Positions 28,691 through 63,574 of a DNA stretch of 64,000 nucleotides are shown piece by piece. The notes beneath the pieces are model-generated. The model worked only from the letters and a program-made list of their open reading frames with translations. It did not search any database and was not told the origin of the DNA. Position 1 is the stretch's first letter; each line of letters begins with the position of its first letter. The translations under genes and the position numbers were made by a program. The DNA is taken from contig CAKPIS010000007.1 in the NCBI GenBank assembly GCA_934162425.1, forward strand, positions 1,128 through 65,127, written 5' to 3'. This stretch comes from an uncultured Bacilli bacterium (GTDB lineage Bacteria; Bacillota_I; Bacilli_A; RF39; UBA660).

Positions 28691-28696
28691 AAGCTA

Positions 28697-34107: not shown

Positions 34108-34117
34108 TTATCACCCT

Positions 34118-35911: not shown

Positions 35912-35997
35912 AAGGACCTCCTACTATCATAATAAGTATAACACAATTAAATATAATAACAAACAAAAAACATCAAAATTTTGATGTTTTGTCTATT

Positions 35998-37185: not shown

Positions 37186-37269
37186 AATAAAATCCCCCTT
37201 TACTTGGTGATTTATTTTAGCATAATTTAAAAAAAATAGCAATAGTACTTGCTATTAATACGTATAGGT

Positions 37270-40466: not shown

Positions 40467-40577
40467 ACTATCAACACCCTATCATATAAATTATTATAAA
40501 TTAAAACCTTTTAAAAGTAAATAAGAACCCTTAATAATTTATAGAATATACTACTATTGTAAGTGAGGAGGATAAAT

Positions 40578-41573
40578 GTGAAAAAGAAAATTATTATAAT
40601 AATTTGCAGTCTTTTAGTATTGTTAGTAGGAACTTTACTAATTATAAAGATGCAAAAAAATGAAAAGAAAGATAATAATGAACTAAAAGAAGTTAAAGTA
40701 GCAGAAGTTGCACACACAATATTTTATGCACCCATGTATGCTGCTATAAGTAAAGACTATTTTAAAGATGAAAATATTAAAATAGATTTAAGTCTAACAG
40801 CAGGTGCTGATAAAGTTACAGCAGCAGTATTATCAGGTGATGTTGATATTGGATTTTGTGGCAGTGAAGCCACTATATATGTATATAATAGTGATGAAGA
40901 AGATTATCTTGTAAACTTTGCAAGATTAACTAAAAAAGATGGTTCATTTTTAGTATCAAGAAAAAAATATGATAACTTTAAACTAGAAGACTTAAAAGGG
41001 AAAAAAGTAATTGGTGGAAGAAAAGGTGGAATGCCTGAAATGACATTTGAATGGGGATTAAAACAAAATGGAATTGATCCTAAAAAAGATTTAAGCATTG
41101 ATACTAGTATAGCCTTTTCAGCTATGGAAGGGGCGTTTATAGGAGGTAATGGTGACTTTGTAACACTATTTGAACCTAATGCACTAAGTGTTGAAAAACA
41201 AGGTTTAGGATACGTTGTTGCATATGTTGGTGAATTTGGTGGTGAAGTTCCATATACTGCTTATAATGCAAGAAAAAGTTATATAGAAAATAATAAAGAT
41301 TTAATTAATGGATTTACAAAAGCTATTAATAAAGGGTTAAAGTATGTAAATGAAACAGATTCTAGTATAGTTGCAAAAGATATATATGAATTCTTCCCTG
41401 AATTATCATTAAATGATTTAACCGCAATCATTGAAAGATATAAAACAAATGAAGCTTGGCCTACTTCATCATATATAACAAAAAAAGACTTTGAACATCT
41501 ACAAGATATAATTATTAGTGCTGGAGAATTAGATAAAAAAGCACCATATGACAAATTAGTTTTTGAAGGATAA
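40578..41573 (+). CDS. ABC transporter substrate-binding protein, NMT1/THI5-like (NitT/TauT family)
   Basis: Signal anchor; ...FYAPMYAAISKDYFKDENI... pattern; GTG 40578 preceded by GAGGAGG. Confidence 0.8.
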   Translation: MKKKIIIIICSLLVLLVGTLLIIKMQKNEKKDNNELKEVKVAEVAHTIFYAPMYAAISKDYFKDENIKIDLSLTAGADKVTAAVLSGDVDIGFCGSEATIYVYNSDEEDYLVNFARLTKKDGSFLVSRKKYDNFKLEDLKGKKVIGGRKGGMPEMTFEWGLKQNGIDPKKDLSIDTSIAFSAMEGAFIGGNGDFVTLFEPNALSVEKQGLGYVVAYVGEFGGEVPYTAYNARKSYIENNKDLINGFTKAINKGLKYVNETDSSIVAKDIYEFFPELSLNDLTAIIERYKTNEAWPTSSYITKKDFEHLQDIIISAGELDKKAPYDKLVFEG

Positions 41574-41576
41574 GTT

Positions 41577-41999
41577 ATGAATGAACTCTTAAAAATAGAA
41601 GAGTTAGAAAAAAATTACTTATCTAAGAAAAATGCCATATGTGCTCTTAAGAATATTAATTTAACAGTTAATGAAAATGAGTTTGTAGTATTAGTTGGAC
41701 CATCTGGATGTGGCAAATCAACTATTTTATCAATAATTGGAAATTTAGAGAAAAAAAGTTCTGGTAATATTAAATTTAAAAATAATAATGTAAAAATAGG
41801 TTATATGTTTCAAGAGGACACACTATTTCCTTGGTTAAATGTTTTAGATAACTGTCTATTGGGACTTAAGATAAGAAAAGAGATAAATGAAAGTAGTATA
41901 TCCTATGTTAAAGGATTATTAGAAAAATATGGTCTTTCTGCATTTGAAAAAAGTTTTCCAAGAGAACTTTCTGGTGGTATGAGGCAAAGAGTTGCTTGA
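41577..41999 (+). pseudogene. ABC transporter ATP-binding protein, 5' fragment (interrupted by element 1)
   Basis: Walker A GPSGCGKST, Q-loop MFQED; ends inside the ABC signature LSGGMRQRVA followed by TGA. Confidence 0.85.
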
Positions 42000-42016
42000 A
42001 TGTTATAAAGACACTT
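41996..42016. repeat. left terminal inverted arm of element 1
   Basis: TTGAATGTTATAAAGACACTT; matches the reverse complement of 49831-49851 at 19/21. Confidence 0.85.
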
Positions 42017-42041
42017 ATGGCATTAAAAAATTGACTCAAAT

Positions 42042-43217
42042 TTATGAATCAATTTCTTTCTTTTTTGTTTTACTTTTCTCTAACATTTTAGCGTCATCAA
42101 CTTGTTTTAATCCCAAATTAATAAAGTATATTATTACAAGCCAAGCTAATATTGTCATAGTTATTTGAACTAGGTAGTATGGAGAATTAATTGGCATATC
42201 CCAAATACCATGTAACACAGCTGGAATTAAACATATAAGTAAAAATCTCTTATCATTTAAATGTTTTCTATCTAATTTTTCAAATCCCTTAACATACATT
42301 AATGCTGCTCCTTCAATAGCTGCCCAAGCAACATGTCCTCCTGGAGCTAAAAATCCACGTAATTTAATTATACTAAGCATAGCAGCATTTCCACTATTTA
42401 AACCAAATCTTAAAATATATCCAGCTGTTTCAAATGCTGCAAACCCAGCTCCAACTGCTGCTCCTATAAGTAATCCATCTAGAATATAATTACTTTTTTT
42501 ACTTTTAAATAGGAATAATGCAACTACTATAGCCTTAGCAACTTCTTCTACAAAACCAACTGTTAATGCACCTGTATATGTTGATATATCCATATTAAAT
42601 CCTAGTGTTGAAAGTAATATCGTAAAAATTAAACTTAAAGCTCCTCCAAGTACGAAATACTTAACAACTTTATAAAATGGAATATTTCTAAACAAATTAA
42701 TTTCATAAAAGAACATTAATACCGTAACTGGAATAGCAAATGCACCAAGCATTATCATAGCAGGTAAAAAATTTACTTGTCCATATGTAATATAACCCAT
42801 TCTTGTTGGTATATATGCAATTATAAAAAATATCAGTATCTTAAAATATACCCATGCACTTGCATTTTTAGGATCAATGTCGCTAACTTTAGGTGTAGTT
42901 CTTTCATCACCACATATAAATACTTCATCTAATTCTTTATCATCATGTTTTTTAAAAGTATTTTTAAACAAATCTTTAAACGTAACATAGTTTTCTGATT
43001 TAGCACCTGTTATCTTATCTAGATTTTCTGTTATTATATTTGTTTGAACCTTCTTAACTAAAGGAAAACCACATTCAGGGCAATTTTGTTCATCACCATT
43101 TATTTTTTTACCACACTCTGGACAAACCTCATTTGATTGCTTAATACCACAATGTGGACATACCTTTGCACTAGATGATATTTCTTTTTTACATTCACTA
43201 CATTTAATTAACGCCAT
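42042..43217 (-). CDS. double zinc-ribbon / PrsW-family intramembrane protease fusion
   Basis: N-terminal CSEC...CPHCG and CPEC..CPECG ribbons; polytopic domain with EEVAK, FAAFE, GHVAWAA, HGIWD (PrsW-type motifs). Confidence 0.75.
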   Translation of the reverse strand: MALIKCSECKKEISSSAKVCPHCGIKQSNEVCPECGKKINGDEQNCPECGFPLVKKVQTNIITENLDKITGAKSENYVTFKDLFKNTFKKHDDKELDEVFICGDERTTPKVSDIDPKNASAWVYFKILIFFIIAYIPTRMGYITYGQVNFLPAMIMLGAFAIPVTVLMFFYEINLFRNIPFYKVVKYFVLGGALSLIFTILLSTLGFNMDISTYTGALTVGFVEEVAKAIVVALFLFKSKKSNYILDGLLIGAAVGAGFAAFETAGYILRFGLNSGNAAMLSIIKLRGFLAPGGHVAWAAIEGAALMYVKGFEKLDRKHLNDKRFLLICLIPAVLHGIWDMPINSPYYLVQITMTILAWLVIIYFINLGLKQVDDAKMLEKSKTKKKEIDS

Positions 43218-43222
43218 GTTCT

Positions 43223-43969
43223 TTACCTCCCTTGCGATAATGTACTAATTATATGTTCTACTACACTATTAATTTCAGAAGAATTAGTATTTTCTTCCTT
43301 AGAAGCTATCATATAAACATTGTTATTCATAATAGTAGCATATCTATTATCTACTACTAAATGCCCACTAGATGTATAGTTATATGCTAATCCATAAACT
43401 GTTTTACCACCTATTTGACCAGATACTAAATCTATTGTTATTGTAAGATCACTATACTCTTTTCTCATGTAATCAGTAAATGCATTTAAAAACTGTACTT
43501 CATTTGTGTAACCTGTATATCTACCAACAATTATATATGGTATTAAAGCTCCCTCATTATCAATATTTTTAGCTACGTAAATAAAACCATCCTTATCAGT
43601 TGCAACTTTGTATGAACTAGGATATTCAAAAGATATACCTAATTTCGAATCAGTATAAGTCATATATCCACTTGTTTTAGCAGGTTCTGTTGTACCTTGT
43701 GTATCTGGATTATTAGTTTTATTATTGTTTGTAGTACCCTTATTTTGTGTATATATTAGAAATAAAATAATTACTACTGCAAATATAAATAAATATCTAT
43801 AACTATCTTTTTTAAATTTACCAGTAAATCTACTTCCATTATTACTTGTGTTATTGTTATTATTACCTAAGTTATTTGCATTCTTATTTAACTCATAACC
43901 ACACTTTGGACAAACCTCTGCCTTATCACTAATCTTATTATTACATTCTGGACACTTAATTAAAGCCAT
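43223..43969 (-). CDS. zinc-ribbon, single-pass membrane protein with extracytoplasmic domain
   Basis: MALIKCPECNNKISDKAEVCPKCG is paralogous to the N-terminus of the downstream gene; TM LFIFAVVIILFLIY. Confidence 0.55.
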   Translation of the reverse strand: MALIKCPECNNKISDKAEVCPKCGYELNKNANNLGNNNNNTSNNGSRFTGKFKKDSYRYLFIFAVVIILFLIYTQNKGTTNNNKTNNPDTQGTTEPAKTSGYMTYTDSKLGISFEYPSSYKVATDKDGFIYVAKNIDNEGALIPYIIVGRYTGYTNEVQFLNAFTDYMRKEYSDLTITIDLVSGQIGGKTVYGLAYNYTSSGHLVVDNRYATIMNNNVYMIASKEENTNSSEINSVVEHIISTLSQGR

Positions 43970-43983
43970 ATTTACATCCTCCT

Positions 43984-45087
43984 TTATTTATCAATATAAC
44001 CACTTGTTTTTTGTGTGTACATCTCATCTGTTACAGACTTATATCTTTGACCATCATAATCATCATTAAAACCATTGTAAGCTTTATAAATTTCATTAGT
44101 TTCAGTATCATATACCCTTTCATAGCCAAGTGTTGCATCACTTTGTTTTTGACTCATAATATCATAAGTCTTATTTCTATTTTCCCATGCACTCATATAT
44201 GAATCAAAAGCTCTTTGTATTGAAGCACTAAGTTCTAAAGCTTTTTTAGTTTGTGCATTTCCATCATCAATTGTTTGTTTAACATAACTATCTGTAAAAG
44301 AAATAGAATTAATAGAATTTAATAATATGTCTTTATAATTTACAAATTCATTTTCATCTGCAGTTATCGCCATTATATCGTATACCATATAATATAATGT
44401 ATCTATTCCGTTAATATAATTATCACCAAAGTTAACAATAGAAGCTAAAAATAATCCTTCACCTTTTTTATTATTAGAACCAGTAAATGTACCTCTTAAT
44501 ACTTTACTATCTAATGCTACACTTTTCATTGAAGCATTACCTTCTTGTTCTTCTATTTTTGTAAAATTAGAATATGTAGGAAAATCAAAGCTTGATAAAG
44601 TAGACTCTGCATTTTTTATATAATTTGCTATATCACCAAACTTTTCATAGAACCCTTGAACAGTTGGATTATCCAAAACAACAGCATCAGCAAATAATTT
44701 GTACTGTCCTTTAGACAAGTTAGAATAATCCTTCCAAAAGTTTTTGGATGCTTCACTTTTAAGTAGTGGCTGAATTTTAAGCATTAAAAATATAGAATTA
44801 TTAGTATTATTAGGATCTGTTACTTTTATTGCATAATACATTCCAACTCCAACACCACTAACTGTCCAACCTTTTGGCTTCTTCATTGTAAATACTGAAC
44901 TTTCATAATCCTCTAATGTTAAAGTAGATACCTCACTTTTTCTAATTTTTAACTTAGCTTCGTTTTTAGTTACAATTTTTCTATCTTTATTCCCACTTTT
45001 TTTATTAGGATTAATCAAAAATATTAGAGCTACTACTATTACTATAGCGGCCAATAATAAGTTTTTATTTTTTTTAATAAATTCCAT
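43984..45087 (-). CDS. hypothetical membrane-anchored extracytoplasmic protein
   Basis: 367 aa, N-terminal TM helix; first gene of a tightly spaced three-gene minus-strand unit. Confidence 0.5.
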   Translation of the reverse strand: MEFIKKNKNLLLAAIVIVVALIFLINPNKKSGNKDRKIVTKNEAKLKIRKSEVSTLTLEDYESSVFTMKKPKGWTVSGVGVGMYYAIKVTDPNNTNNSIFLMLKIQPLLKSEASKNFWKDYSNLSKGQYKLFADAVVLDNPTVQGFYEKFGDIANYIKNAESTLSSFDFPTYSNFTKIEEQEGNASMKSVALDSKVLRGTFTGSNNKKGEGLFLASIVNFGDNYINGIDTLYYMVYDIMAITADENEFVNYKDILLNSINSISFTDSYVKQTIDDGNAQTKKALELSASIQRAFDSYMSAWENRNKTYDIMSQKQSDATLGYERVYDTETNEIYKAYNGFNDDYDGQRYKSVTDEMYTQKTSGYIDK

Positions 45088-45153
45088 TAATTAAACACCT
45101 TACCTTTTATACCTATTTAATTATAGTTTAAATTATTTATATTAACAATTAAC

Positions 45154-45184
45154 TTGCCATTTAATTCATTGTTTTTAATGGCAA
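45154..45184. promoter_or_regulatory. inverted repeat in the divergent promoter region of element 1 (operator or attenuator candidate)
   Basis: TTGCCATT-N15-AATGGCAA followed by T7 on the plus strand, ~55 nt upstream of the HTH gene. Confidence 0.3.
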
Positions 45185-45239
45185 CTTTTTTTATCTATTT
45201 CCAATTTATATAGTATAATAAACATATGAGGTGATAAAT

Positions 45240-46970
45240 TTGACATTTAAAGACACACTTAATTCATATTTAAAAGAAATAAATTCTTCATCAAAAAAAT
45301 TATCTGATGTATCTGGCATTTCTGAATCAGTTATAAGTAGATATAGAAGTGGAGATAGAACACCTAATAAAAATGAAGTTTTATTAAAACTATCTGATGC
45401 TATATATACTATTTCATTAGAAAATAATAAATTAAATTATAAAAAAGAAGATATCTTAAAAAAATTAAAGGACTCTACTAAAGAAGATGAATTTAACTAT
45501 GATACCTTTAGTTTAAATTTTAATAAATTAATATCTGCTCTTAATATTAACACAAATGATATGTCAAAATACATCGTATTTGATGCATCACATATTTCTA
45601 GAATAAGATATGCAAAATCAAAACCATCAGATCCTAAAGAGTTTAGTACTAAAATTTGTAATTATGTTACATCAAAATATAATGATAGTGATAGTTTAAA
45701 TATATTATCTACACTAATGGGTTGTAAAAAAGAAAAAATAGAAAAAGATTTATTTAATACACTTTATAATTGGTTAATAAATAATGATTGTAATAATTAT
45801 AAAAACAACATAGAAAACTTTCTAAATCATTTAAATGAGTTTAATTTAAATGATTATATAAAAGCTATTAAGTTTGATGAATTAAAGGTACCTAATATAC
45901 CTTTTTACAGAGGAAAAACTAAAAATTACTACGGATTAGAAGAAATGAAAAAAGCAGAATTAGACTTTTTTAAAATAGCCGTTTTATCCAAGAATAAAGA
46001 AGATATATTTATGCATAGCGATATGCCTATGGAAGATATGGCAAAAGATGTTTTGTTTGGAAAAAAGTGGATGTTTGGGATAGCCCTAAGTCTTAAAAAA
46101 GGACTTAATTTAAATATAATACATAATCTAGATAGACCATTTGATGAAATGATGTTAGGGCTTGAAAGTTGGATTCCTATATATATGACTGGACAAGTAT
46201 CACCTTACTATTTAAAAGAAGTTAAAAATAGTGTATACAATCATTTAAATTATGTATGTGGTAGTGCTGCTTTATGTGGTGAATGTATTAAAGGATATCA
46301 TGATAAAGGTAAATATTATTTAACAAATAATAAAAAAGAAATAGAATATTACAAAGAAAAAGCTAATTTATTACTTAAGAAAGCTAATAGTTTAATGGAC
46401 ATATATAAGGAAGAAAATAAAAATGATTTTAAGGTGTTTATGTTAAACGATTCCAAATTAAAAGTTAACAGAAAAAGAATAATATCTACTCTTCCTATTG
46501 AAACTATAGATAATAATTTATTAGAAGAAATATTAAAATATAATAATGTTAGTAAAAAAGATGAAAAACTAATTTTAAAATATAAGATGGAAGAAGAGGA
46601 AAATATTAACAAAATATTAAAAGATAGTATTATAGAAAATGTTATATATGAAGTTAAAAAAGATGAATTTGTAAACGAAGAGTTTTATTTATCATTAGAA
46701 AATATGTTTTATGATAAAAAGATAAAATATACTTATGATATGTATAAAAAACATTTAGCATCAAGTAAAAGCTATTCTAAAAAGCATCAAAATTATAAAA
46801 TAATAAAAGCAAAAGATAAAACATTTAAAAACATATCTATAACCATTTTAAAAGATAATTACGTGATATTATCTAAAAGTGCTAATCCAATAATACATTT
46901 TGTAATTAGACACCCTAAATTAGTTAATGCAATAGAAAATTTTAGTCCTTTGGTAAAAGAAGAGGCATAG
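45240..46970 (+). CDS. large helix-turn-helix protein (two XRE-like HTH segments, ~400-aa unknown C-terminal region)
   Basis: ...LSDVSGISESVISRYRSGDRTPN... and ...MSKYIVFDASHISRIRYAKSKPS...; TTG 45240 preceded by GAGGTGA. Confidence 0.6.
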   Translation: MTFKDTLNSYLKEINSSSKKLSDVSGISESVISRYRSGDRTPNKNEVLLKLSDAIYTISLENNKLNYKKEDILKKLKDSTKEDEFNYDTFSLNFNKLISALNINTNDMSKYIVFDASHISRIRYAKSKPSDPKEFSTKICNYVTSKYNDSDSLNILSTLMGCKKEKIEKDLFNTLYNWLINNDCNNYKNNIENFLNHLNEFNLNDYIKAIKFDELKVPNIPFYRGKTKNYYGLEEMKKAELDFFKIAVLSKNKEDIFMHSDMPMEDMAKDVLFGKKWMFGIALSLKKGLNLNIIHNLDRPFDEMMLGLESWIPIYMTGQVSPYYLKEVKNSVYNHLNYVCGSAALCGECIKGYHDKGKYYLTNNKKEIEYYKEKANLLLKKANSLMDIYKEENKNDFKVFMLNDSKLKVNRKRIISTLPIETIDNNLLEEILKYNNVSKKDEKLILKYKMEEEENINKILKDSIIENVIYEVKKDEFVNEEFYLSLENMFYDKKIKYTYDMYKKHLASSKSYSKKHQNYKIIKAKDKTFKNISITILKDNYVILSKSANPIIHFVIRHPKLVNAIENFSPLVKEEA

Positions 46971-47033
46971 AGTTAATCTATGTCTTTAATATTTTATCTT
47001 TAATTTAATATATTTAAATTAGAGGTGTTTATT

Positions 47034-47177
47034 TTGAAATACAATGTAGATGAAATTTATGATGAAAATTTAACTTATGATATTTTAAAAATAATAATTA
47101 ATCAAAAAATATATAATATCATAGAAAAGTTAGAATTTAATTTATGCCCAGATATGGATGGTAATTATATTGAATAA
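47034..47177 (+). CDS. possible small acidic protein overlapping the recombinase start (RDF candidate)
   Basis: Own reading: AGAGGTG-N6-TTG, 47 aa (KYNVDEIYDENLTYDILKII...); stop overlaps the recombinase start by 20 nt. Confidence 0.25.
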   Translation: MKYNVDEIYDENLTYDILKIIINQKIYNIIEKLEFNLCPDMDGNYIE

Positions 47178-48789
47178 TTTAAACAGAACGTTAAGAGTTG
47201 GCATTTATTTAAGATTATCTAATGAAGATAAAGATAAGGCTTATAAAAATGATGTAAGTGAATCAATTAAGAACCAAAGAAACATGCTTATTGAGTATAT
47301 TAATAAACACCCCGAATTTATACTTATAGATGAATATTCTGATGAAGATTTATCAGGTGCTGGGACATATAGACCAGAGTTCGAAAGATTAATTAAGGAC
47401 TGTAAAAACAGAAAATTAGATATAGTGTTATGTAAAAGTCAGTCTAGATTTTCAAGGGATATGGAAATCGTTGAAAGATATATAAATAACAAATTTAAAG
47501 AATGGAATATTAGATTTATTAGTTTAGTAGATAATGCTGATACTTTAATTTTAGGAAATAAAAAGTCAAGGCAAATAAATGGATTAGTTAATGAGTGGTA
47601 CTTAGAAGATGTATCTAATAATATTAGGAGTGCTTTTTTTTCTAAAATGAAACAAGGAGAATTTATTTCACCCTTTGCTTCACTTGGATATGAAGTTTCA
47701 AAAGAAAATAACAATAAATTAGTAATTGATAAAGAGGCTGCTTTAATTGTAAAGATAATATTCAATTTATATTTAATGGGTTTTGGATACATGAGGATAG
47801 CTAAATACTTAAATGATAAAGCAATCCCCTCTCCTTCACTATACAAGTATAAAAAAGGAATCAAATTAAATGTAATTAGTAATAAACCAAGGGATAAAAT
47901 TAAATGGAATTCATCTGCTATTAAAAGTATTTTATCAAATGAACTTTATTTAGGTCATTTAATCCAAGGTAAAAGAACTACCGTTAGCTATAAAAATCAT
48001 AAAATAATAAATAGACCTAAAAATGAATGGATAAAAATTAAAAATACACACGAAGCTATAATAGATGAAGAAACTTTTATGAAAGTACAAAAAGCTATGA
48101 AAGAAAGAACAAAGGTAGCTAAAAATACAGGTAAAATTCATAATTTTTCTGGAAAGGTCTTTTGCTTAGAATGCGATAGTTACATGAGAAAAAAAAATTC
48201 TAGCAAGCATGAGTATTTAGTTTGTTCTAATAATCAAGATAGTTGTTGCAAAAACAAGTCATCTGTGCGTTATGAAGTATTAGAAAATATTATTTTAAGT
48301 GAAATAAATAAAAAAATCAAAAGTTATTATGATGGGCAACTATTAAAAAAAGAAATATTAAAAAAGAAAAAAGCTATATCCCAAAAAAAACTTTCATTAT
48401 TAGAAAATCAAAAAAAAGAATTACTCTTAAATTTATCTAAAACAAGCAACTATTTACAAAATCTTTATGAAGATAAAGTTAATAATATTATTACTAAAGA
48501 GCAATTCGAAAGTTTAATTACAATTTATAATAATGATAGAGATAATTATAAAGAAAAGATTAAATTTATTAATAATGAAATTATACATTATAAAGAAAAA
48601 GAAAAGAATAATGATAACGATGAAAAGATTTTATGTAAATATCAAGAATTTAGCAAATTAAATAGAATTATTATCCAAGAATTTATAGATAAAATATATA
48701 TAGGAAAAATAAATAAAGAAGTTAAAGTAAGAGATATTAAAATAAAGTGGAATTTTAATATGTTAGAGGGAAAGATAAAAGTTTTGTAG
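47158..48789 (+). CDS. large serine recombinase (element 1)
   Basis: 543 aa; RVGIYLRLSNED catalytic-Ser segment, SRFSRD, recombinase and zinc-ribbon region (CLECDS...CSNN), coiled-coil tail. Confidence 0.85.
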   Translation: MVIILNNLNRTLRVGIYLRLSNEDKDKAYKNDVSESIKNQRNMLIEYINKHPEFILIDEYSDEDLSGAGTYRPEFERLIKDCKNRKLDIVLCKSQSRFSRDMEIVERYINNKFKEWNIRFISLVDNADTLILGNKKSRQINGLVNEWYLEDVSNNIRSAFFSKMKQGEFISPFASLGYEVSKENNNKLVIDKEAALIVKIIFNLYLMGFGYMRIAKYLNDKAIPSPSLYKYKKGIKLNVISNKPRDKIKWNSSAIKSILSNELYLGHLIQGKRTTVSYKNHKIINRPKNEWIKIKNTHEAIIDEETFMKVQKAMKERTKVAKNTGKIHNFSGKVFCLECDSYMRKKNSSKHEYLVCSNNQDSCCKNKSSVRYEVLENIILSEINKKIKSYYDGQLLKKEILKKKKAISQKKLSLLENQKKELLLNLSKTSNYLQNLYEDKVNNIITKEQFESLITIYNNDRDNYKEKIKFINNEIIHYKEKEKNNDNDEKILCKYQEFSKLNRIIIQEFIDKIYIGKINKEVKVRDIKIKWNFNMLEGKIKVL

Positions 48790-48914
48790 AACAATATGAG
48801 TGGAAGGTTATATTTTTATATAATCTTTTTTAAATGCTAATTAAAAGGAAGTGAAAACTAATAAAAAACGAGATTATATTATTTGAAAATCAAAACGTAA
48901 AATTAGAAGTTAAT

Positions 48915-49799
48915 ATGAAAGATGAAAGCGTTTGGCTAAATCGTGAGCAATTAGCTATGCTTTTTGATAGAGATATTAAAACAATAGGCAAACATATTAA
49001 TAATGCTTTAAATGAAGAACTAGATAATTCAGTTGTCGCAAAATTTGCGACAACTGCAAAAGATGGTAAAACTTATCAAGTAGAATATTACAATTTAGAT
49101 ATGATAATTAGTGTTGGTTATCGTGTTAAGAGTCAAAATGGTGTTATTTTTAGAAAATGGGCAAATAAAGTATTAAAAGATTATATAATTAAAGGTTATG
49201 CAGCCAATCAAAAAAGACTAGAATATCTTGAAAAAGCAATTAAATTAATAGATATTGCTGGAAGAATAGATACTGAATTAAAAGGTACAGAAGCTGGGGA
49301 AATAATTAAAGTAATAAATAACTATTCAAATGCTTTAAATTTACTTAATGACTATGACCATAAGCGAATAACTAAACCAAATGGTACAAAAAATAACAAA
49401 AAGATTACTTATGAAGAGTGTATTAGTATAGTTAATAAACTTAAATTTAATAGTGATAGTGACTTATTTGCACTTGAACGAGATGATGGTTTAAAAGAGG
49501 TTATAGGCACTATATATCAATCTTTTGATGGTAAAGACTTATATCCTAGCATTCAAGAAAAAGCAGCCAATTTCTTATATTTAATAACTAAAAACCATAC
49601 TTTCATTGATGGTAATAAAAGAATTGCTGCTACACTATTTATCTATTTTCTTGAATTCTATAATATTCTATATAAAGAAAATGTACAAGTTATTGATAAT
49701 AATTCTCTTGTTGCTATTACACTACTTATAGCAGAGTCTAATCCGAAAGAAAAAGATATACTAATTGATTTAGTAATGAACTTCTTGAAAAATAAATAA
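48915..49799 (+). CDS. RhuM-family N-terminal domain fused to a Fic/Doc domain
   Basis: VWLNREQLAMLF...KHINN, ...YYNLDMIISVGYRVKSQNGVIFRKWA (RhuM pattern); C-terminal HTFIDGNKRIAA = Doc-type HxFxDGNKR motif. Frame is open 60 nt further upstream without a canonical start. Confidence 0.8.
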   Translation: MKDESVWLNREQLAMLFDRDIKTIGKHINNALNEELDNSVVAKFATTAKDGKTYQVEYYNLDMIISVGYRVKSQNGVIFRKWANKVLKDYIIKGYAANQKRLEYLEKAIKLIDIAGRIDTELKGTEAGEIIKVINNYSNALNLLNDYDHKRITKPNGTKNNKKITYEECISIVNKLKFNSDSDLFALERDDGLKEVIGTIYQSFDGKDLYPSIQEKAANFLYLITKNHTFIDGNKRIAATLFIYFLEFYNILYKENVQVIDNNSLVAITLLIAESNPKEKDILIDLVMNFLKNK

Positions 49800-49830
49800 T
49801 AATTAAAAAAATATCCAGAACACTTATAAA

Positions 49831-49851
49831 AAGTGTCTTTAATACATTCAA
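49831..49851. repeat. right terminal inverted arm of element 1
   Basis: AAGTGTCTTTAATACATTCAA. Confidence 0.85.
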
Positions 49852-50193
49852 AGAGTTGCCTTAATTAGGACACTAGCTATTAAACCAGATATACTTCTTT
49901 TAGATGAACCGTTTTCAGCATTAGATTATCAAACTAGGATAAATGTATCTGATGATGTATATAAAATTATAAAAGAAGAGAAAAAAACAGCAATAATGGT
50001 TACACATGATATATCTGAAGCAATCGCTATGGCTGATAAAGTTATAGTATTAAGTAAAAGACCAGCTGTAGTTAAAAATAGTTATACAATTGAAATGGAA
50101 TGCAAAAACTTACCAAGCATAAATAGAAAAAATAAAAAATTTGACTACTATTATGACTTAATTTGGAAGGACTTTGATTATCATGAAAGCTAA
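49843..50193 (+). pseudogene. ABC transporter ATP-binding protein, 3' fragment
   Basis: Frame open from 49843: ..QRVALIRTLAIKPDILLLDEPFSALD (Walker B), MVTHD (H-loop); no start codon of its own until 49996. Confidence 0.85.
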
Positions 50194-50815
50194 AAATGAA
50201 TACAAGACTTACCTAAAAAAATTAAGAATATCAAAAATTAGAGTCTTACTTTGTCAAATATCAATATTTTTACTATTTATAATAACATGGCAAATACTTG
50301 CAGATAAAAATATAATAAGCACATTTCTATTTTCAAGTCCTACTAAAATAGTTCAAACCATAATCAATCTAGCTACTAAAAATGAATTATTTATTCATAT
50401 TCTAGTAACATTAAAAGAAATATTAATTAGCTTTACAATAGGTACAATAATAGGCATATTATTTGCAGCTATACTATGGCTTAGTCCATTTTTATCAAAA
50501 GTATTAGATCCATATTTAACTATACTTAATAGTTTGCCTAAAGTATCACTTGGTCCTATAATAATTATTTGGGCTGGAGCTAATCAAAATTCCGTTATAA
50601 TAATGGCACTTTTAATATCAGTTATATCAACTATTATATCAGTCTATTCTGGTTTTAAACAAACGAATAAAAATAGCATTAAGCTTCTTAAAAGCTTTAA
50701 TGCCAATAATTTTCAAATATTTACAAGTGTTATTTTTAAAGCTAATATAAATACAATTATAAGTTCACTTAAAATTAACCTATCAATGACCTTTGTTGGG
50801 CTAATGGTAATATGA
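50183..50815 (+). pseudogene. ABC transporter permease, 5' fragment (interrupted by element 2)
   Basis: Overlaps the ATPase 3' end as in an operon; 5 TM segments; ends ...LSMTFVGLMVI then TGA at the junction. Confidence 0.8.
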
Positions 50816-50836
50816 AGAGAAAAAATATTTTTAAAA

Positions 50837-52183
50837 TTAAGATATCTTATAAAATATCTCTATATCATTATCAGTTACCACAACTTTATCAATAATGTGC
50901 ATAATTATTATCCTTTTTTCTTCAAATGTCATTTTATTCCAAGTGTTTTGAAGATTTCTTAACATTTTTAATGAAACTCTATTTTGTTCTTCATTATTTT
51001 TTGAAATATCAATTATCTCTAATATTGACTTTCTTTCTTGCTCTAATTCTTCAATTTTCTTTTTAATGTCATCAACTGCAATACCATCTGAAATAAAATT
51101 AATCAAGTTGCCTATTTGTAAGTTTATCTTTGCAAATCTTTTTTCATATTCACTGATAACATCCACTTGTGTAATTTCGTATTTTTCTCTAAACAAATCT
51201 TCATCAAGTGCCATTGAAAATAAGTTTTCTAATACCACATCTTCAATTTCAAAGGAATCCCATCTTTTATTTTTGCAATTTGGATCTTTAATAAATTTGG
51301 GTTTACTTTTTTGTTGGGAGTAGCAGTAGCAAATCAATCTTTTTCCCCATTTTTGATATCTATACTTTGCACCACAGTGTCCACAAAATATTTTTCCTGA
51401 TAACAAATAATGACTTTCTGTTCTTGCTTTGCTTCGTAGTTTATTAGTTTCCATTATTTTCTTATGTAATTCTTCTGATATTACCGCTTCATGCTTTCCT
51501 TCGAATTCTTGATTCTTATATGGTACAATACCTAGCGTTCTTCTTGATAGTATTCTTTTTTCAACCATACTTTCATCCATACCAACTATATTACTAATTT
51601 TAACAAAACTATAACCATTTAAATAAAGATTTATCATTTTATGTAATAATTCTACTTGTTCTGGTACAGGAATTAAAGTTCCTGTATTTTTATCATAGGT
51701 ATAAGGGAATGGATTTTTCCCTCCACCTTTCCAATATCCATTTTCAGCTCTTTTTTTTATACCAATTTTCGTTCTTTCAAGTATCGTTTCTCTTTCAAGT
51801 TGTGCGAATATTGATAAAACACCGACCATAGCTTTACCAAATGGAGTTGTAGTATCAAAATTTTCTCTCACAGAAACAAAGCCCACATTATATTTATTAA
51901 ACACCTCTTCAATTAAATATAAAGTATCTTTTTGACTTCTTGATATTCTATCTAGTTTAAATACAATTACACAATCAATTTTATGAACTTTAACATCTTT
52001 TATGAGTCTTTGAATGGCTGGTCGTTCCAAGTCTTTACCACTATAACCACCATCAACATAATATTCATACTCGGTAAATTCTTTAGCTTTAGCATAGTTT
52101 AATAAAAATTCTTTTTGTGCATCAATTGAATAACCTTCTAATTGAATATCAGTTGAAACTCTAGCATATAATCCTGCTTTTAT
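50837..52183 (-). CDS. large serine recombinase (element 2), SpoIVCA/SprA-like; non-canonical or lost start codon
   Basis: The track ORF starts at TTG 52030, but the frame is open to 52198 and encodes (I)KAGLYARVSTDIQLEGYSIDAQ... (catalytic Ser). AAGGAGG at 52198-52192 is followed 8 nt later by ATA (52183). No ATG/GTG/TTG lies in between. Confidence 0.8.
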   Translation of the reverse strand: MKAGLYARVSTDIQLEGYSIDAQKEFLLNYAKAKEFTEYEYYVDGGYSGKDLERPAIQRLIKDVKVHKIDCVIVFKLDRISRSQKDTLYLIEEVFNKYNVGFVSVRENFDTTTPFGKAMVGVLSIFAQLERETILERTKIGIKKRAENGYWKGGGKNPFPYTYDKNTGTLIPVPEQVELLHKMINLYLNGYSFVKISNIVGMDESMVEKRILSRRTLGIVPYKNQEFEGKHEAVISEELHKKIMETNKLRSKARTESHYLLSGKIFCGHCGAKYRYQKWGKRLICYCYSQQKSKPKFIKDPNCKNKRWDSFEIEDVVLENLFSMALDEDLFREKYEITQVDVISEYEKRFAKINLQIGNLINFISDGIAVDDIKKKIEELEQERKSILEIIDISKNNEEQNRVSLKMLRNLQNTWNKMTFEEKRIIIMHIIDKVVVTDNDIEIFYKIS

Positions 52184-52677
52184 AACAATTACCTCCTTCT
52201 AACTATAAAAGCAGTCATATACTATATTAGATTGCTCTTACAGTATAACATACATTTCACAATTTATGTCTTAAATCAAAAAAATAAGGAAAAGTTCTGG
52301 TAAACTCTCCCTTAAGTATAACTACTTTTACTGTGAATATTTTTTAATTAGTTCATATATCAATGGTATCTTTATTACTATGTCTTTTGGGTTTATGATT
52401 TTACCATTTGAATCATAATTTGTTACTTTATTAGCCACTAATATAGTCGCCCCTAATTAAGTTTATTTTTATTTCATATAAATTATTCAGTCATAATTTC
52501 TCTTATATCAAATCACTCGTTATATACCAATATTTTCAATAGCATAATCAACGATATATTAGTATAATTTCCTATAAACTATTCTAAACCATCCATATCA
52601 TAATTATAGTTATTAAATATCAATTGAGAAAATTCTACATTTTTTCTTAACAATTAAAATTACCAAACAACATTTCC

Positions 52678-52714
52678 AAAAAAGTCTTGCTTTATTTAGC
52701 AAGACTTTAAAAAA
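52678..52714 (-). terminator. rho-independent terminator
   Basis: AAAGTCTTGCT-N6-AGCAAGACTTT with a U-run on the minus strand, just downstream of 52719. Confidence 0.55.
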
Positions 52715-52718
52715 CTAA

Positions 52719-53090
52719 TTAATCTTTTAAAATAACTATTTTTTTAACATTAGATAATTTAGCTGGTTCACTTGGTAATATCACATCGGATGAAGTAATA
52801 GTTACTTTTTGCTTTGCTTTTAATTTATCTGCAGCAGAATCTTCATTGTTATAAACTATTTTTGTATCTTTATTTATTTCAAATTCATACTCTATAGTAT
52901 ATTCTTTTTTCTTTTTGTCATATTCTTCCACTAAAACAGTATATACATTATTATTTACTGTTACTTCTTTAATTCTTGCTTCAAAAACCAATTCTTTTTC
53001 TTTTGAAACATAATTTGTATATATGAAGTATCCTAATCCTACAAGGACAACTACTGCTATAATTATTTTTACTAGTAAATCTTTTTTCAT
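52719..53090 (-). CDS. hypothetical membrane-anchored small protein
   Basis: 123 aa, N-terminal TM/signal anchor. Confidence 0.5.
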   Translation of the reverse strand: MKKDLLVKIIIAVVVLVGLGYFIYTNYVSKEKELVFEARIKEVTVNNNVYTVLVEEYDKKKKEYTIEYEFEINKDTKIVYNNEDSAADKLKAKQKVTITSSDVILPSEPAKLSNVKKIVILKD

Positions 53091-53130
53091 TTCTTCCCTC
53101 CTTTCCTAAATTAATTTATTTAAACTTATA

Positions 53131-54465
53131 TTATAAGAATCTATCCCAATAATATCTTCCTGTATTAGATAATGTTTTAAAATGCTCTTTAATTTGTGAA
53201 CTAATTAATTTTGCTTTTTTATTTATTGGAGTACCATCATTGTAACAAGATCTCTTTGTTGTTCTAGTCATCATATCAGAAAATAAAACAGCTCTATCTT
53301 CTAAATAACTTTGTCTTGAATAATACGATAAAAAATAAGCATTATTTGGATTGGAAAAATTATAATCATAAGTACTATCATTAGAACCATAACTAAATCC
53401 TTCAGGATTATATGATTTCATTATTTCTTCTAAGTTTAATGTTGAATTTTTTTGTCGCATATAAATATCAATATAGTGCATTAACTCATGGTGCAAAGTA
53501 CTTTCAAATAAACTAGTACCATTGGTTCCAATAGTTACTGTTATATTACTTTGATTTCTACCATCTGTCATACCTGAATAATTTCCATCTATTTTGTTAA
53601 CCATGTATATTCTAAGAGAAATATTATTATCCTTCATTTCTTTAAAAAAACCGTTTGGATATTTTTTTAATGTTTTCTCTACTTCTTTTAAATATTTATC
53701 TATCTCATTATCATCATTTAGTTTTTCAGTTTTTATAGAGCCACCGATTAAATAATCACCATTCTCATCTTTATATATGATTTTAACTGAATACTTATTT
53801 TCTAATGTTTTTCTATATTCATTATTTTTTTCTGCTTGAGTTTTTTCTACAACTGGTGGCTTTTCATCGGGTAAAATAGTATTTGTGTTATTGTTATTGT
53901 TTGTATTTTGATTAGGTTTATTAGTATTAGTACTACTATTGTTATTATCTGTATTAGTGTTTGTTTTAGATTTTTCAGTTTTAGTATTAGTTTTTTTATT
54001 TTCCATTTTTTCCCAAACAGCATAAAGGGTAGTATCTTCTGCAAGTAATACTTTGTTATAAATTGGAGTTTCATTTTTATCAACCCAGCCTTTAAAAACA
54101 TAGCCATCTCGTACAGGTTCTTTTGGAAGTGTAAGTTCAATATCTTTATTTATAGTAATACTATCTATTATGCTTCCACCTTTAGTATCAAATGTAATTG
54201 TTATTGCTTCTTTTATATCTTTTTCAATGTCATTCATAGGGCAAGCATATTTAGTCGTTTTTAAAACTGTTTTAGTTTTACCATCAGAACATTTATAAGT
54301 ATTTGTAAAAATCCCTTTATCTATGTAAACAGTAGAACCACCATCATAATAATCTCTAATTTTAATTATTTGACTATTATTAAATGAAAGAGCGATTATA
54401 AAATCTAAAAATATTAAACTTATTATAGAACATAGTGTGATTATTATTATTTTTTTCTTCTTCAT
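53131..54465 (-). CDS. secreted/anchored protein with a Listeria-Bacteroides (Flg_new) repeat and a putative HExxH metallopeptidase domain
   Basis: 444 aa; signal anchor; GYVFKGWVDKNETPIYNKVLLAEDTTLYAVWEK repeat; Asn/Thr-rich linker; STLHHELMHYID motif. Confidence 0.55.
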   Translation of the reverse strand: MKKKKIIIITLCSIISLIFLDFIIALSFNNSQIIKIRDYYDGGSTVYIDKGIFTNTYKCSDGKTKTVLKTTKYACPMNDIEKDIKEAITITFDTKGGSIIDSITINKDIELTLPKEPVRDGYVFKGWVDKNETPIYNKVLLAEDTTLYAVWEKMENKKTNTKTEKSKTNTNTDNNNSSTNTNKPNQNTNNNNNTNTILPDEKPPVVEKTQAEKNNEYRKTLENKYSVKIIYKDENGDYLIGGSIKTEKLNDDNEIDKYLKEVEKTLKKYPNGFFKEMKDNNISLRIYMVNKIDGNYSGMTDGRNQSNITVTIGTNGTSLFESTLHHELMHYIDIYMRQKNSTLNLEEIMKSYNPEGFSYGSNDSTYDYNFSNPNNAYFLSYYSRQSYLEDRAVLFSDMMTRTTKRSCYNDGTPINKKAKLISSQIKEHFKTLSNTGRYYWDRFL

Positions 54466-54636
54466 TATACCTCCTCACAAATAATAAACGAAAAGTGATT
54501 TACTTCTGTATATTAATTATATCATGAATTTCCCGATTTCAAAAAAGTTTTTAATTTGGTTGCTTTTTAGGTATCAATAATTTAAAAGAAAAAGACCAAT
54601 ATAAAATTGATCTTATCTATAAAACATATTATTAAA

Positions 54637-55197
54637 TTAACATTTTCCACCGTTATCTTTAAAATATGATTCAATATATTTTACTAATATTTTAGCTTTG
54701 TTAAACTGTTTATCTTTAACAATTTTTATAATATAATCACTACCACTTGCATCAATAATATTATCATCTTTATCATATTCTATTAGATAAGTATACTTTT
54801 CACCATTAAGTTGACAATTAAGAAGAACAGTTTGATTTTCTTTTATAGTCATAGAATTTTTTTTAGCACCAAACATAATATTTATGAAAATAGTAATAGC
54901 AAAACCAACAATAAAAATTATTCCCAAGACTTTTAGTATCTTAATTATTATCTCTGTATTTTTTTCGTTATTATTTACTTTTTCTACTAATACTTGTTTA
55001 ATGTCATTATTTAATAATTCATCAATACTTACTTTTAATGCTTTAGATAATAATTTTAACTGCTCTGGATTTGGTGAAGTTTCACCAAGCTCCCAATTTG
55101 ATATTGTTTGTCTAGTAACATCAACTTTTTCTGCTAATTGTTCTTGTGAAAGTTTACAATCTTTTCTTAATTTTAAAATGTTATCTCCTAATTTCAT
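54637..55197 (-). CDS. XRE-family HTH protein with TM helix
   Basis: LRKDCKLSQEQLAEKVDVTRQTISNWELGETSP; TM VLGIIFIVGFAITIFINIMF. Confidence 0.7.
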   Translation of the reverse strand: MKLGDNILKLRKDCKLSQEQLAEKVDVTRQTISNWELGETSPNPEQLKLLSKALKVSIDELLNNDIKQVLVEKVNNNEKNTEIIIKILKVLGIIFIVGFAITIFINIMFGAKKNSMTIKENQTVLLNCQLNGEKYTYLIEYDKDDNIIDASGSDYIIKIVKDKQFNKAKILVKYIESYFKDNGGKC

Positions 55198-55304
55198 TCT
55201 ATCTCTCCTTTCACTTACAATTATATATGAGTTGATATTTGCAATCTACCAAATGTCTTTGGAAGTTTGTCAAAGACTTTTAACAATTATAATACAAATA
55301 ACTA

Positions 55305-55685
55305 TTATTCTACATCACAAGACCAAAGTCCATGCTTATTACAATATGCATATAATTTTGATCCTTTTATATATTTGAATTTACATTCTGCACTTTGTTC
55401 TGGTGATAATTTAACTTTGCAAATATCTTTTTCATTAACTAGTGCAATCCATTCAATAAAATGTTCTTTTTCCATAACATGATTAACTTTAACAAGTATT
55501 TTATCATCACTATGTTCAAAAGTTGGAATATGTTTTTCAAACGATGCATCAACACTATTTGAAATTAACTTTATCATAGGTTCACAACAACAAGTTATTT
55601 CACAGTCGCCACAGTTACAATCATTAATTACCTCAACTATCGTTCCACACTTTAAACACTTTTTTATTATTAACTCACTCATCAT
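55305..55685 (-). CDS. desulfoferrodoxin (class I superoxide reductase)-like protein
   Basis: 126 aa; N-terminal CLKCG...CCCEPM desulforedoxin-like site; EKHIP, HVMEKEHFIEWI, YCNKHGLW match the Dfx centre II pattern. Confidence 0.75.
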   Translation of the reverse strand: MMSELIIKKCLKCGTIVEVINDCNCGDCEITCCCEPMIKLISNSVDASFEKHIPTFEHSDDKILVKVNHVMEKEHFIEWIALVNEKDICKVKLSPEQSAECKFKYIKGSKLYAYCNKHGLWSCDVE

Positions 55686-55835
55686 TTGTTTCCTCCTTTA
55701 TAACAATAGACTATCTTTAATAAATTTCTTCCATAACAGTATGAACAACATATTTCTGCCATAATTTTTTCTCTCAATTGCAATAAATATAAGTATATAA
55801 ACTGCTTCTAATTTTTTCCCCATACCTGCTATAAC

Positions 55836-56021
55836 GGTGTAATAATGGGAGAATTATTAGTATCTAAACAAGGCTTAGGTTACTTAATAAACTATGGTTC
55901 CCAAGTATTTAATATAAACTTAGTAATGTCAGGAATAATACTACTTGCACTTCTAACTAGTATTTTATACTTCGTAATATTATTTATAGAAAAAGCATTA
56001 AAAAATAACAAATCAATTTAA
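55836..56021 (+). pseudogene. ABC transporter permease, 3' fragment
   Basis: Own reading: GVIMGELLVSKQGLGYLINYGSQVFNINLVMSGIILLALLTSILYFVILFIEKALKNNKSI*, typical C-terminus of NitT/TauT permeases. Confidence 0.75.
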
Positions 56022-56029
56022 TATAATTA

Positions 56030-56078
56030 AAGAATACATGATAATTTCTTTACATAGTAATTATCGTATTCTTTTTTT
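56030..56078 (+). terminator. long hairpin terminator between convergent genes
   Basis: AAGAATAC..GATAATT-loop-AATTATC GTATTCTT followed by T6. Confidence 0.55.
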
Positions 56079-56105: not shown

Positions 56106-56879
56106 TTAATAACTTTTAGCACTACTACTTAAGTATCTTTTTCTATCCCATAACTTACTAGGAAGCAAAGTAACATATATAGTAGCTGTATCCCCATTAA
56201 TTACTACATCATCTACTTTAGATAAACTATCTTTGTTAATAAGATATTCTGCCTGACTAGTAGAATACGTTAAATCATCATCTAAAAGAAGTGCACCAGA
56301 TGAATAATTACCATCTATCTTATATACTATCTCAACGTTGTAATTAATACCCCTTTCATTTTCTTTATTAAAAAAATGACTACCATTAATAATAGAAGTA
56401 CTAGTAAAAGCTTCTTCATAAATAAATTTATTTTTTAAATTAACTAAATCTTCTATATTATTTATACCATAGTCTTTAAAATAAGATAATGTAACACCTC
56501 TATAAGTATTAAAACATAAATCTATAGGTGGAAACGTATCAATTAACTTTTCTATTTTCTTACCCTTTTCTAAATAATCTCTTTTAATATTATCATCTAA
56601 TTTACCATTTTCATAATAATTCCATTTATGTCTTAATATAGCATTAATATTTCTAAAATTATACCCTGTATAACTTCTTATACTCTCTAAATCATTAAAT
56701 GTTAATCCATTTTTAAAATCTTCTATCTTTTCATTAAATACCCTATATAATGTATCTCTATCATTAAAACTAACTGGTCTTACACCATCTATATAATTTA
56801 AATAATTATAAGAATCATCTTTTTCAGCATCACTCATATATCTTAATATTAATTCTACTGTTTTATTTTTATCTTGCAT
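56106..56879 (-). CDS. ADP-ribosyltransferase, C3/exoenzyme-like (R-S-E class), no signal peptide
   Basis: 257 aa; YTGYNFRNINAILR, TYRGV (Arg), FTSTS (STS), SQAEYLI (QxE). Confidence 0.7.
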   Translation of the reverse strand: MQDKNKTVELILRYMSDAEKDDSYNYLNYIDGVRPVSFNDRDTLYRVFNEKIEDFKNGLTFNDLESIRSYTGYNFRNINAILRHKWNYYENGKLDDNIKRDYLEKGKKIEKLIDTFPPIDLCFNTYRGVTLSYFKDYGINNIEDLVNLKNKFIYEEAFTSTSIINGSHFFNKENERGINYNVEIVYKIDGNYSSGALLLDDDLTYSTSQAEYLINKDSLSKVDDVVINGDTATIYVTLLPSKLWDRKRYLSSSAKSY

Positions 56880-60484: not shown

Positions 60485-60503
60485 TTAAATAGCATAAAAA
60501 AAA

Positions 60504-60605
60504 TTGGCAACTACCTATTTTCGCTTACACTATCGTCGGCGTTAAAGTGCTTAACTTCTGTGTTCGGGATGGGAACAGGTGTATCCACTTTGCTATCGTC
60601 ACCAA
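60504..60605 (-). rRNA. rrf: 5S rRNA (apparently short, ~102-108 nt; ends approximate)
   Basis: Reverse complement reads TTGGTGACGATAGCAAAGTGGATACACCTGTTCCCATCCCGAACACAGAAGTTAAGCACTTTAACGCCGACGATAGT...GTTGCCAA. Confidence 0.8.
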
Positions 60606-60660
60606 TTAAATTAGAGAAATAATTCTCTGAAAACATGATAATATGGTCAACAAATTAATA

Positions 60661-63574
<2,914 letters not shown>

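Follow-up and report, generated by a model that had tools for sequence, protein, structure and literature searches.

Two unrelated serine recombinase elements in neighboring genes of one importer operon from uncultured gut Bacilli: probable independent insertions at conserved coding motifs

Can two mobile elements in neighboring genes of one operon form a switch that opens only when both have been excised? The question is raised by a 64,000-nucleotide stretch of contig CAKPIS010000007.1 from an uncultured Bacilli bacterium (hereafter the window, to which all coordinates refer; the region is ~24% GC). Here an ATP-binding cassette (ABC) importer operon carries one insertion in its ATPase gene, Element 1 (E1), and another in its permease gene, Element 2 (E2), each with its own large serine recombinase (LSR1 and LSR2, respectively). 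A preliminary description of this DNA proposed a two-key switch, in which separate excisions rebuild both genes. Based on a comparison of conspecific contigs and related species, we consider it probable that E1 and E2 are instead unrelated, small, non-phage integrative elements that inserted independently, using conserved coding motifs of the operon as attachment sites.

The operon comprises three tightly packed genes on the plus strand (40563-56021; Table 1), the first of which encodes an intact substrate-binding protein (SBP) that is 99% identical in the related contig L001. Its match to the NCBIfam SsuA_fam model is below cutoff, and NCBIfam gave no equivalog-level family match for the importer. 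The ATPase gene starts 3 nt past the SBP stop codon, and the start of the permease gene overlaps the end of the ATPase gene by 11 nt. The open reading frame (ORF) of the ATPase N-fragment terminates at 41999, within E1, and its 140-aa product (P0122) has exact matches in 39 contigs. The ORF of the permease N-fragment extends to 50815, its last residues (LMVI, followed by the stop codon) being encoded by E2, and the exact 210-aa product occurs in 19 contigs. The double-split arrangement recurs in independent assemblies (L090-L092, L100, L102, L115, and L117-L120) and is therefore not an assembly artefact; L102, from a Hadza gut metagenome, is 100% identical to the window in every compared segment.

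Both interrupted genes can be restored exactly, as the preliminary description stated for this three-gene operon with an intact SBP gene. Rejoined in silico, the 250-aa ATPase matches P0131, an intact protein of natural contigs without E1, at every residue, and the window minus E1 aligns without gaps over the junction to the natural E1-free contigs L093 (7065 bp, 99.2%) and L096 (4286 bp, 99.65%). The restored permease has 266 aa, the length of natural intact permeases, with the junction ...MTFVG/VIMGELLVS (here and below, a slash marks the crossover). No stops, frameshifts, or changes at conserved positions were found in any ATPase or permease fragment, and the listed variants of either protein included no decayed fragments. 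The residues at which the E2-linked permease differs from intact conspecific permeases are conservative substitutions at positions that also vary in other species.

E1 is bounded by an 11-bp direct repeat, CAAAGAGTTGC, and the outer halves of its site join as GGT ATG AGG CAA AGA GTT GCC TTA ATT, encoding GMRQRVALI. The reconstructed attP1, AAGTGTCTTTAATACATTCAAAGAG/TTGCTTGAATGTTATAAAGACACTT, is a near-palindrome whose arms match at 20/25 positions around AGAG/TTGC, a center that makes GT the probable central dinucleotide. A GACAC motif lies 5 bp farther from the core in attP1 (element arm) than in attB (host arm), and an offset of this kind between attP and attB is a known difference for large serine recombinases, as seen in the LI integrase-DNA structure.

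For E2, the empty site attB2 can be read directly in L001, a 99% identical relative without this element, as ...ACCTTTGTTGG/TGTAATAATGGGAG... Only GG is common to attB2, attL2, attR2, and attP2, which therefore sets the limits of E2 given in Table 1; the E2 arms match at 14/25 positions, weaker than those of E1. A permease join at an apparent GTAATA repeat, yielding 271 aa, was rejected because the empty site in L001 gives GG and 266 aa. The natural empty sites of E1 and E2 match the predicted attB exactly. Both elements thus have short att sites with precise attL and attR that could recombine to attB, and, as read from the contigs, the junctions are precise and attP and attB are built in the way that is canonical for large serine recombinases.

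LSR1 and LSR2 share the large serine recombinase architecture (catalytic resolvase domain, recombinase domain, and zinc ribbon) and are 26% identical to each other. In Pfam, LSR1 matches Resolvase (2e-17), Recombinase (1e-24), and Zn_ribbon (3e-10), with the motif YLRLSNED; it scores 24.9 bits against a cutoff of 25 for DUF4368, matches the TnpX N-terminal domain (9.5e-9), and is 31% identical over its full length to an annotated TndX. LSR2 matches Resolvase (5e-39) and Zn_ribbon (1e-10), and Recombinase weakly (3e-4), with the catalytic motif YARVSTDIQ; it is 36% identical to streptococcal phage integrases and 41% identical to a recombinase adjoining a sigma-factor fragment in MT839977. The different recombinases and different att cores reported in the preliminary description hold, as does the 543-aa length of LSR1; LSR2, put there at ~449 aa, has 448 aa and starts at ATA.

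Neither element resembles a phage in gene content. Pfam and PHROGs detected no phage structural, packaging, replication, or conjugation families in E1 or E2, and the PHROGs matches were limited to zinc-ribbon, Doc-like toxin, and repressor-type families. No close relatives of either element, or of LSR1 or LSR2, were found in IMG/VR, and no mobilization, conjugation, or resistance genes were detected in E1. MT839977 was considered as a sign of phage origin for LSR2 and rejected, as the record is an unverified, higher-GC scaffold with a sigma-factor fragment and not a circular mini-element.

Conspecific contigs with the same flanks (VanW ... ADP-ribosyltransferase, pilin, TsaD) were retrieved by exact-protein look-ups, a route that biases the haplotypes obtained. 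The site-occupancy survey that the preliminary description called for finds all four states among them: no element (L082-L089), E1 only (L001, L116, L123, L125, and L126), E2 only (L093, L095, L096, L098, L099, and L108-L113), and both (the window, L090-L092, L100, L102, L115, and L117-L120). Among the listed members of 90%-identity protein clusters, which are metagenome contigs and not isolates, the split 140-aa ATPase is found in ~196 contigs versus ~50 with the intact 250-aa protein. Permease N-fragments of 210, 216, and 236 aa, which share one junction and differ in element-end variants, are found together in ~53 versus ~52 with the intact 266-aa permease. This corresponds to an occupancy of ~80% at the E1 position (site 1) and ~50% at the E2 position (site 2). 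About 2/3 of the E2-bearing contigs that reach the ATPase are also occupied at site 1, near the overall frequency for that site, which indicates that E1 and E2 assort independently.

The E1 insertion also appears to be young, or at least frequently renewed. In 10/11 E1-bearing contigs, the split ATPase allele, compared over the 742 nt that lie outside the core, differs by 0–2 nt from the nearest natural intact allele (0 in the window; the exception, L123, differs by 6), and both haplotypes of the ATPase N-terminal part and both of the C-terminal part occur with and without E1. Moreover, the window differs from L118 by 0.8 per 1000 in the flanks and by 16.5 per 1000 within E1, and from L115 by 1.3 and 11.6 per 1000, respectively. 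The near-identical split and intact alleles, the mixed haplotypes, and the discordance between E1 and its flanks therefore point to repeated, recent gain, loss, or exchange of E1. With such turnover there has been no time for the split ATPase to decay, so selection for reversibility is unnecessary as an explanation. The "very recent insertion" offered in the preliminary description thus stands for the ATPase fragments and was not demonstrated for E2. A dN/dS of 0.13 between the split ATPases of the window and L001 (17 nt and 4 aa changes) was considered as a sign of purifying selection and set aside; the differences separate two major haplotypes, each found both split and intact, and so predate the insertions.

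The same operon is a target in other species. Using the binding protein, a pattern-based search recovered 345 related loci, and the 80 best, one per species, were retained; all 80 source records are from uncultured low-GC gut bacteria, labeled 'Bacilli bacterium', 'Clostridium sp. CAG:594/710/1193', 'Tenericutes', or 'Mollicutes'. Judging from these record names, the clade probably corresponds to RF39-type orders. A recombinase-type insertion is present in the operon in 18 of these 80 species, at three fixed positions, and 59 retain a conserved, intact operon. Nine species have site 1 occupied (L001, L009, L025, L033, L045, L048, L056, L059, and L080), by elements with differing cargo and a common element-side half-site, TGAAT...AGACAC. 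Site 2 is occupied in six (L002, L045, L054, L063, L068, and L070), with the GG crossover and a conserved element end in common, and LSR2 relatives, in the loci where that gene could be reached, are 56–70% identical. Four species (L041, L057, L060, and L076) carry insertions with similar ends at a third site, which lies near residue 195 in the H-loop of the ATPase (...VTHD..E/); serine recombinase genes were seen there in L041 and L060 only, and the 1.9-kb insertion in L041 (11591..13466) encodes a 372-aa recombinase and one membrane protein.

Measured relative to the local flanks, recombinase genes are concentrated in this operon, with eight inside its ~2.8 kb versus two in the ~17 kb of flank per locus. 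The operon is therefore a recurrent target, and the presence of two insertions in it is not a coincidence, contrary to part of the null explanation in the preliminary description, namely two coincidental dead-end insertions; the "dead-end" part fails for E1, given its turnover. Double occupancy was found once among the 80 species (L045), versus ~0.7 expected under independence. In the loci surveyed, each recombinase lineage keeps to its own site across species. Within the species the two elements segregate independently, and the turnover of E1 is both recent and repeated.

Two further contigs end exactly at a crossover, L016 (end 4500) at the site-1 core and L011 (end 12357) at the site-2 GG; such ends are expected where occupied and empty alleles coexist in a sample and break the assembly. 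In two other species, an insertion of ~2.3 kb separates the binding-protein gene from the ATPase gene (L058, 7546..9859; L063, 5088..7326).

Several observations weigh against independent, mobile insertions. Recent turnover is not evident for E2: LSR2 is 99.5–100% identical among E2 copies, E2 is linked to a single permease haplotype whose nearest sampled empty allele differs at 13/788 nt, and a collection of 15 billion proteins contains no exact match to the restored permease. These features would fit one older insertion of E2 that has been passed down within a clade. The haplotype pattern of E1 could also be produced by homologous recombination between strains, without excision or integration, and no transfer genes that would explain its movement between strains were found. 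The contig counts, as noted, do not come from isolates, and the assembled contigs showed neither an excised circle (attP) nor empty and occupied sites side by side in one sample. Patterns for attP1 and attP2 were matched by no sequence in the JGI metagenomes, in IMG/VR, or among the fetched loci. In JGI, a control pattern able to match attL1 as well also gave nothing, which indicates that the species is absent there and leaves this negative without weight.

E1 lies in the signature-motif region of the ATPase, and E2 at the conserved Gly codon of ...FVG/VIMGE... in the permease; on the reading of independent insertion, LSR1 and LSR2, respectively, would have placed them there. Either element probably inactivates the importer for as long as it is in place: Walker B is missing from the ATPase N-fragment, the split permease is without its last transmembrane segments, and E1 has a polar effect on the genes that follow it. 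Excision by the recombinase would rebuild each gene exactly, and the excised copy would mostly be lost, since no replication or transfer genes were detected in E1 or E2; excision would then be a one-way unlocking within a lineage and not a toggle. Read-through from the operon promoter is unlikely to reach either recombinase gene, judging from gene order, as LSR2 is convergent and LSR1 lies behind three opposite-strand genes. The double lock in the window strain would represent two frequent, independent insertion polymorphisms. Two excisions are needed because two insertions are carried, and this need is not evidence of design.

The alternative that fares best, and one that we consider unlikely, is a selected, reversible loss of function. 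In this case the importer-off state would sometimes be advantageous, for example by preventing uptake of a toxic analogue or because the SBP serves as a phage receptor, and rare precise excision would act as bet-hedging. The high occupancy of both sites within the species and the disruption of the operon in the 18 related species, at three sites and by three recombinase lineages, would fit this explanation, as would the lack of decayed fragments among the listed variants and the existence of empty alleles identical to occupied ones. However, occupancy would be expected to be just as high if efficient site-specific elements landed in a gene not needed in the gut, and no excision product was observed. 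Nor is there a hint of the substrate from an equivalog match or from Rfam, which recognized only the rRNA operon in the window and no riboswitch. In an extended form that strikes us as quite doubtful, the importer would be conditionally harmful in the gut and serine recombinase elements would be heritable, exactly reversible off-switches for the whole clade. If this were true, the three lineages would have converged because the knockout pays, and stacked locks, as in the window and L045, would lower the reversion rate stepwise.

It is also improbable that the insertions are dead ends in a dispensable operon that is becoming a pseudogene. Most conspecific contigs do have at least one split gene, the permease haplotype linked to E2 was sampled only in the occupied state, and on few data dN/dS is higher for this haplotype (0.39 for the permease N-fragment) than for its neighbors (0.13–0.18). 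Against this, the fragments lack stops, frameshifts, and conserved-position changes, E1-free alleles identical to E1-bearing ones indicate recent changes of state, and the operon is conserved and intact in most of the related species surveyed.

The two-key switch itself, in which the host or the two elements together would set off the two excisions in response to a particular developmental or environmental cue, draws its plausibility from endospore formers. There, gene-intervening elements and their recombinases include skin/SpoIVCA in sigK, SPbeta/SprA in spsM, and gin/GirC in gerE (PMC4191935, PMC5499854, PMC5025042, PMC5595907). Like these, E1 and E2 are large serine recombinase elements within coding sequence that allow precise rejoining at a short shared core; gin is also non-phage (PMC5595907), and LSR2 belongs to the same broad recombinase class. 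The exact restorability of both genes and the action of related recombinases in sigK, spsM, and gerE (PMC4191935, PMC5595907, PMC5025042) therefore count in favor of a switch, as does the sigma-factor fragment next to the best phage-collection match of LSR2. The lineage also keeps some sporulation genes: the window encodes a homolog of the sporulation protein YunB (10479..11195, minus strand; Pfam, 1.1e-21), and a genome survey predicts that RF39-type uncultured Bacilli are spore-capable (PMC10868615). An argument against the switch from a non-sporulating host was accordingly dropped.

However, skin, SPbeta, and gin lie in sporulation genes of the mother cell, a terminal cell in which sporulation sigma factors and a directionality factor direct their excision. 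The genes interrupted here encode the ATPase and permease of an NMT1/SsuA-type importer, and a vegetative function would gain nothing from excision in a terminal cell. E1 and E2 are also polymorphic, and E1 has been exchanged among strains, unlike the sporulation elements. With four occupancy states in one species, doubles not enriched over independence, E1 exchanged on near-identical flanks, unrelated cargo and recombinases, and no shared regulator found, an evolved two-key switch is very improbable, and a regulated AND gate is unsupported.

Nor would an arrangement of several elements in one functional unit be new, as the preliminary description supposed. In heterocyst-forming cyanobacteria, whose interruption elements include nifD/XisA and fdxN/XisF, 101 such elements have been catalogued (PMC4874684), and in Calothrix NIES-4101 seven excisions and two inversions are needed to assemble the nif genes (PMC11249958). 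As in the heterocyst nif case, several recombinase elements here occupy neighboring genes of one unit, and all must be removed for function. In that case excision during terminal differentiation was shown experimentally, whereas no sign of regulated or coupled excision was seen for E1 and E2, whose host belongs to a different phylum. E1 and E2 are polymorphic, assort independently, and have not become fixed in the lineage; the matches of LSR1 and LSR2 to the XisF model are far below its cutoff.

Among mobile elements, E1 can be compared in its recombinase with the TnpX/TndX elements (Tn4451/Tn4453 and Tn5397); the domain layout of LSR1 is alike, with DUF4368 borderline, and E1 is small. TnpX needs no separate directionality factor for either excision or insertion, and the central dinucleotide of TnpX and TndX is GA, as opposed to the probable GT of E1. 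In active lysogeny, exemplified by the Listeria comK prophage, a serine recombinase element lies in a coding gene and its excision restores that gene. Unlike that prophage, E1 and E2 (7.9 and 5.0 kb) have no phage modules or detectable replication genes; an excised copy could therefore not survive as an episome and reintegrate as described for that phage.

Recombinases of the DUF4368 clade are typically multi-targeting (PMC10083194). In contrast, E1 was found at one place only, the ATPase site, in look-ups of the E1 and E2 proteins of the window, in the 21 contigs with the LSR1 variant P0152, and in relatives from nine species, the last survey being anchored on this operon. Most large serine recombinases are site-specific for conserved genes, and distant lineages converge on one target (PMC10083194). 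The targets highlighted in that work include competence-related genes (a Mg-chelatase/ATP-dependent protease homologue and DNA competence genes) and a prolyl isomerase, and the term 'ABC transporter' is not in its main text. The present locus fits the same pattern, with three lineages at three positions in one operon and a host clade of uncultured gut Bacilli.

Table 1. Window coordinates of the importer genes, the two elements, and the genes that they carry
Feature	Coordinates	Strand	Remarks
SBP, NMT1/THI5-like, SsuA/TauA-type	40563..41573	+	Intact, first gene; Pfam NMT1 5.7e-24
ABC ATPase N-fragment	41577..41995	+	Walker A to signature motif, end ...LSGGMRQRVA; Pfam ABC_tran positions 1-118 of 137
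attL1 core	41985..41995		Left copy of 11-bp direct repeat
E1, non-phage integrative element	41996..49859		7864 bp including one core copy
PrsW-family membrane protease with zinc ribbons (E1 cargo)	42042..43217	-	Pfam
Zinc-ribbon/PsbP-like protein (E1 cargo)	43223..43969	-	Pfam
367-aa protein without assigned function (E1 cargo)	43984..45087	-	
579-aa protein (E1)	45231..46970	+	Weak N-terminal Pfam HTH_26/HTH_3, both below cutoff
Small ORF, 50 aa (E1)	47025..47177	+	Overlaps LSR1 start; called as 47 aa in each E1 copy
LSR1, TndX-like large serine recombinase, 543 aa	47158..48789	+	
RhuM/Fic-DOC protein, 294 aa (E1), candidate anti-phage gene	48915..49799	+	PADLOC PDC-S23 3e-115; PHROG Doc-like toxin
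attR1 core	49849..49859		Right copy of 11-bp direct repeat
ABC ATPase C-fragment	49860..50193	+	Start LIRTLAIKPDILLLDEP...; Walker B, H-loop, and C-terminus; in frame with N-fragment
Permease N-fragment, host part	50183..50799	+	Pfam BPD_transp_1 positions 1-127 of 184
attL2 crossover dinucleotide GG	50798..50799		attL2/attR2 versus empty attB2 of L001
E2, non-phage integrative element	50800..55837		5038 bp
LSR2, TP901-1/SpoIVCA-like large serine recombinase, 448 aa	50837..52183	-	ATA start (52183..52181), 8 nt after AGGAGG
DUF3221-like protein (E2 cargo)	52719..53090	-	
444-aa secreted protein (E2 cargo)	53131..54465	-	Listeria-Bacteroides repeat and HExxH motif
XRE-type HTH membrane protein (E2 cargo)	54637..55197	-	
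Desulfoferrodoxin-like protein (E2 cargo)	55305..55685	-	
attR2 crossover dinucleotide GG	55836..55837		attL2/attR2 versus empty attB2 of L001
Permease C-fragment	55838..56021	+	Start VIMGELLVSKQGLGYLI...; Pfam BPD_transp_1 positions 128-178; colinear with intact L001 permease

None of the cargo of E1 or E2 (Table 1) is connected with the importer. In E1, PADLOC gave no match for the minus-strand cargo (42042..45087), and the 579-aa protein has no match in NCBIfam, PADLOC, or PHROG. The 50-aa ORF, which has no family match, is by its position the sole candidate accessory or directionality factor. The RhuM/Fic protein was the only match in the defense-system search of the elements, as candidate PDC-S23. 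This gene, next to attR1, is hypervariable in other strains (compared in L100, L103, L115, L116, L119, L123, and L125), with lengths of 111, 123, or 268 aa, and L123 lacks it altogether; the cargo that comes after it in L103 is different (HTH, DcuC, and an amino-acid kinase). The E1 copy in L122 (6092..12084) has two additional left-end genes, one of them for a protein of 1518 aa in which Peptidase_C1, Flg_new, and dockerin domains are combined.

Canonical start codons are mostly absent from the LSR2 family: the window and L002 have ATA, L063 and L070 have ATT, and ATG occupies the homologous codon in L054. The ATA and ATT starts are properly spaced behind AGGAGG and may keep translation of the recombinase low. 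Because of its non-canonical start, gene callers report LSR2 as a truncated 397-aa protein in which the catalytic serine is missing. A terminator-like hairpin (52285..52314, minus strand), ~100 nt upstream of the LSR2 start, would insulate LSR2 from transcription of the upstream element genes. In L092 (15371..20633; the same in L101), the right part of E2 is swapped for a second PrsW/zinc-ribbon/HTH cassette followed by a D12 methyltransferase. This cassette has ~70% DNA identity to that of E1, which suggests a tandem or composite element in L092, with a cassette able to move from one recombinase backbone to another.

Around the operon, the downstream gene for an ADP-ribosyltransferase exoenzyme-like protein (56106..56879, minus strand) is variable and absent in L001, L087, L088, L123, and L125. 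About 21 kb of the window (15945..37287) has no counterpart at this position in L001, while L082 and others keep the window gene order; this probably reflects a deletion, rearrangement, or binning gap in L001. An rRNA operon (60502..64000, minus strand; 5S, 23S, and the 3' end of 16S) explains the jump in GC at the end of the window. No tRNA genes were found. A promoter/terminator scan returned 130 sites versus 130 expected and is uninformative at 24% GC.

No new kind of genetic switch emerges from this locus. It cautions that a split gene that appears perfectly restorable may reflect recent insertion alone and not selection for reversibility. The two new recombinase/attB/attP sets, with naturally verified empty sites, and a recombinase family that starts at ATA or ATT are of possible interest for genome engineering. 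For the biology of this uncultured gut lineage, the value of the locus is as a well-resolved case of large serine recombinase elements that use conserved motifs in a non-essential operon as landing pads, with three attachment sites in one operon and a turnover of E1 fast enough that the split ATPase never decays.

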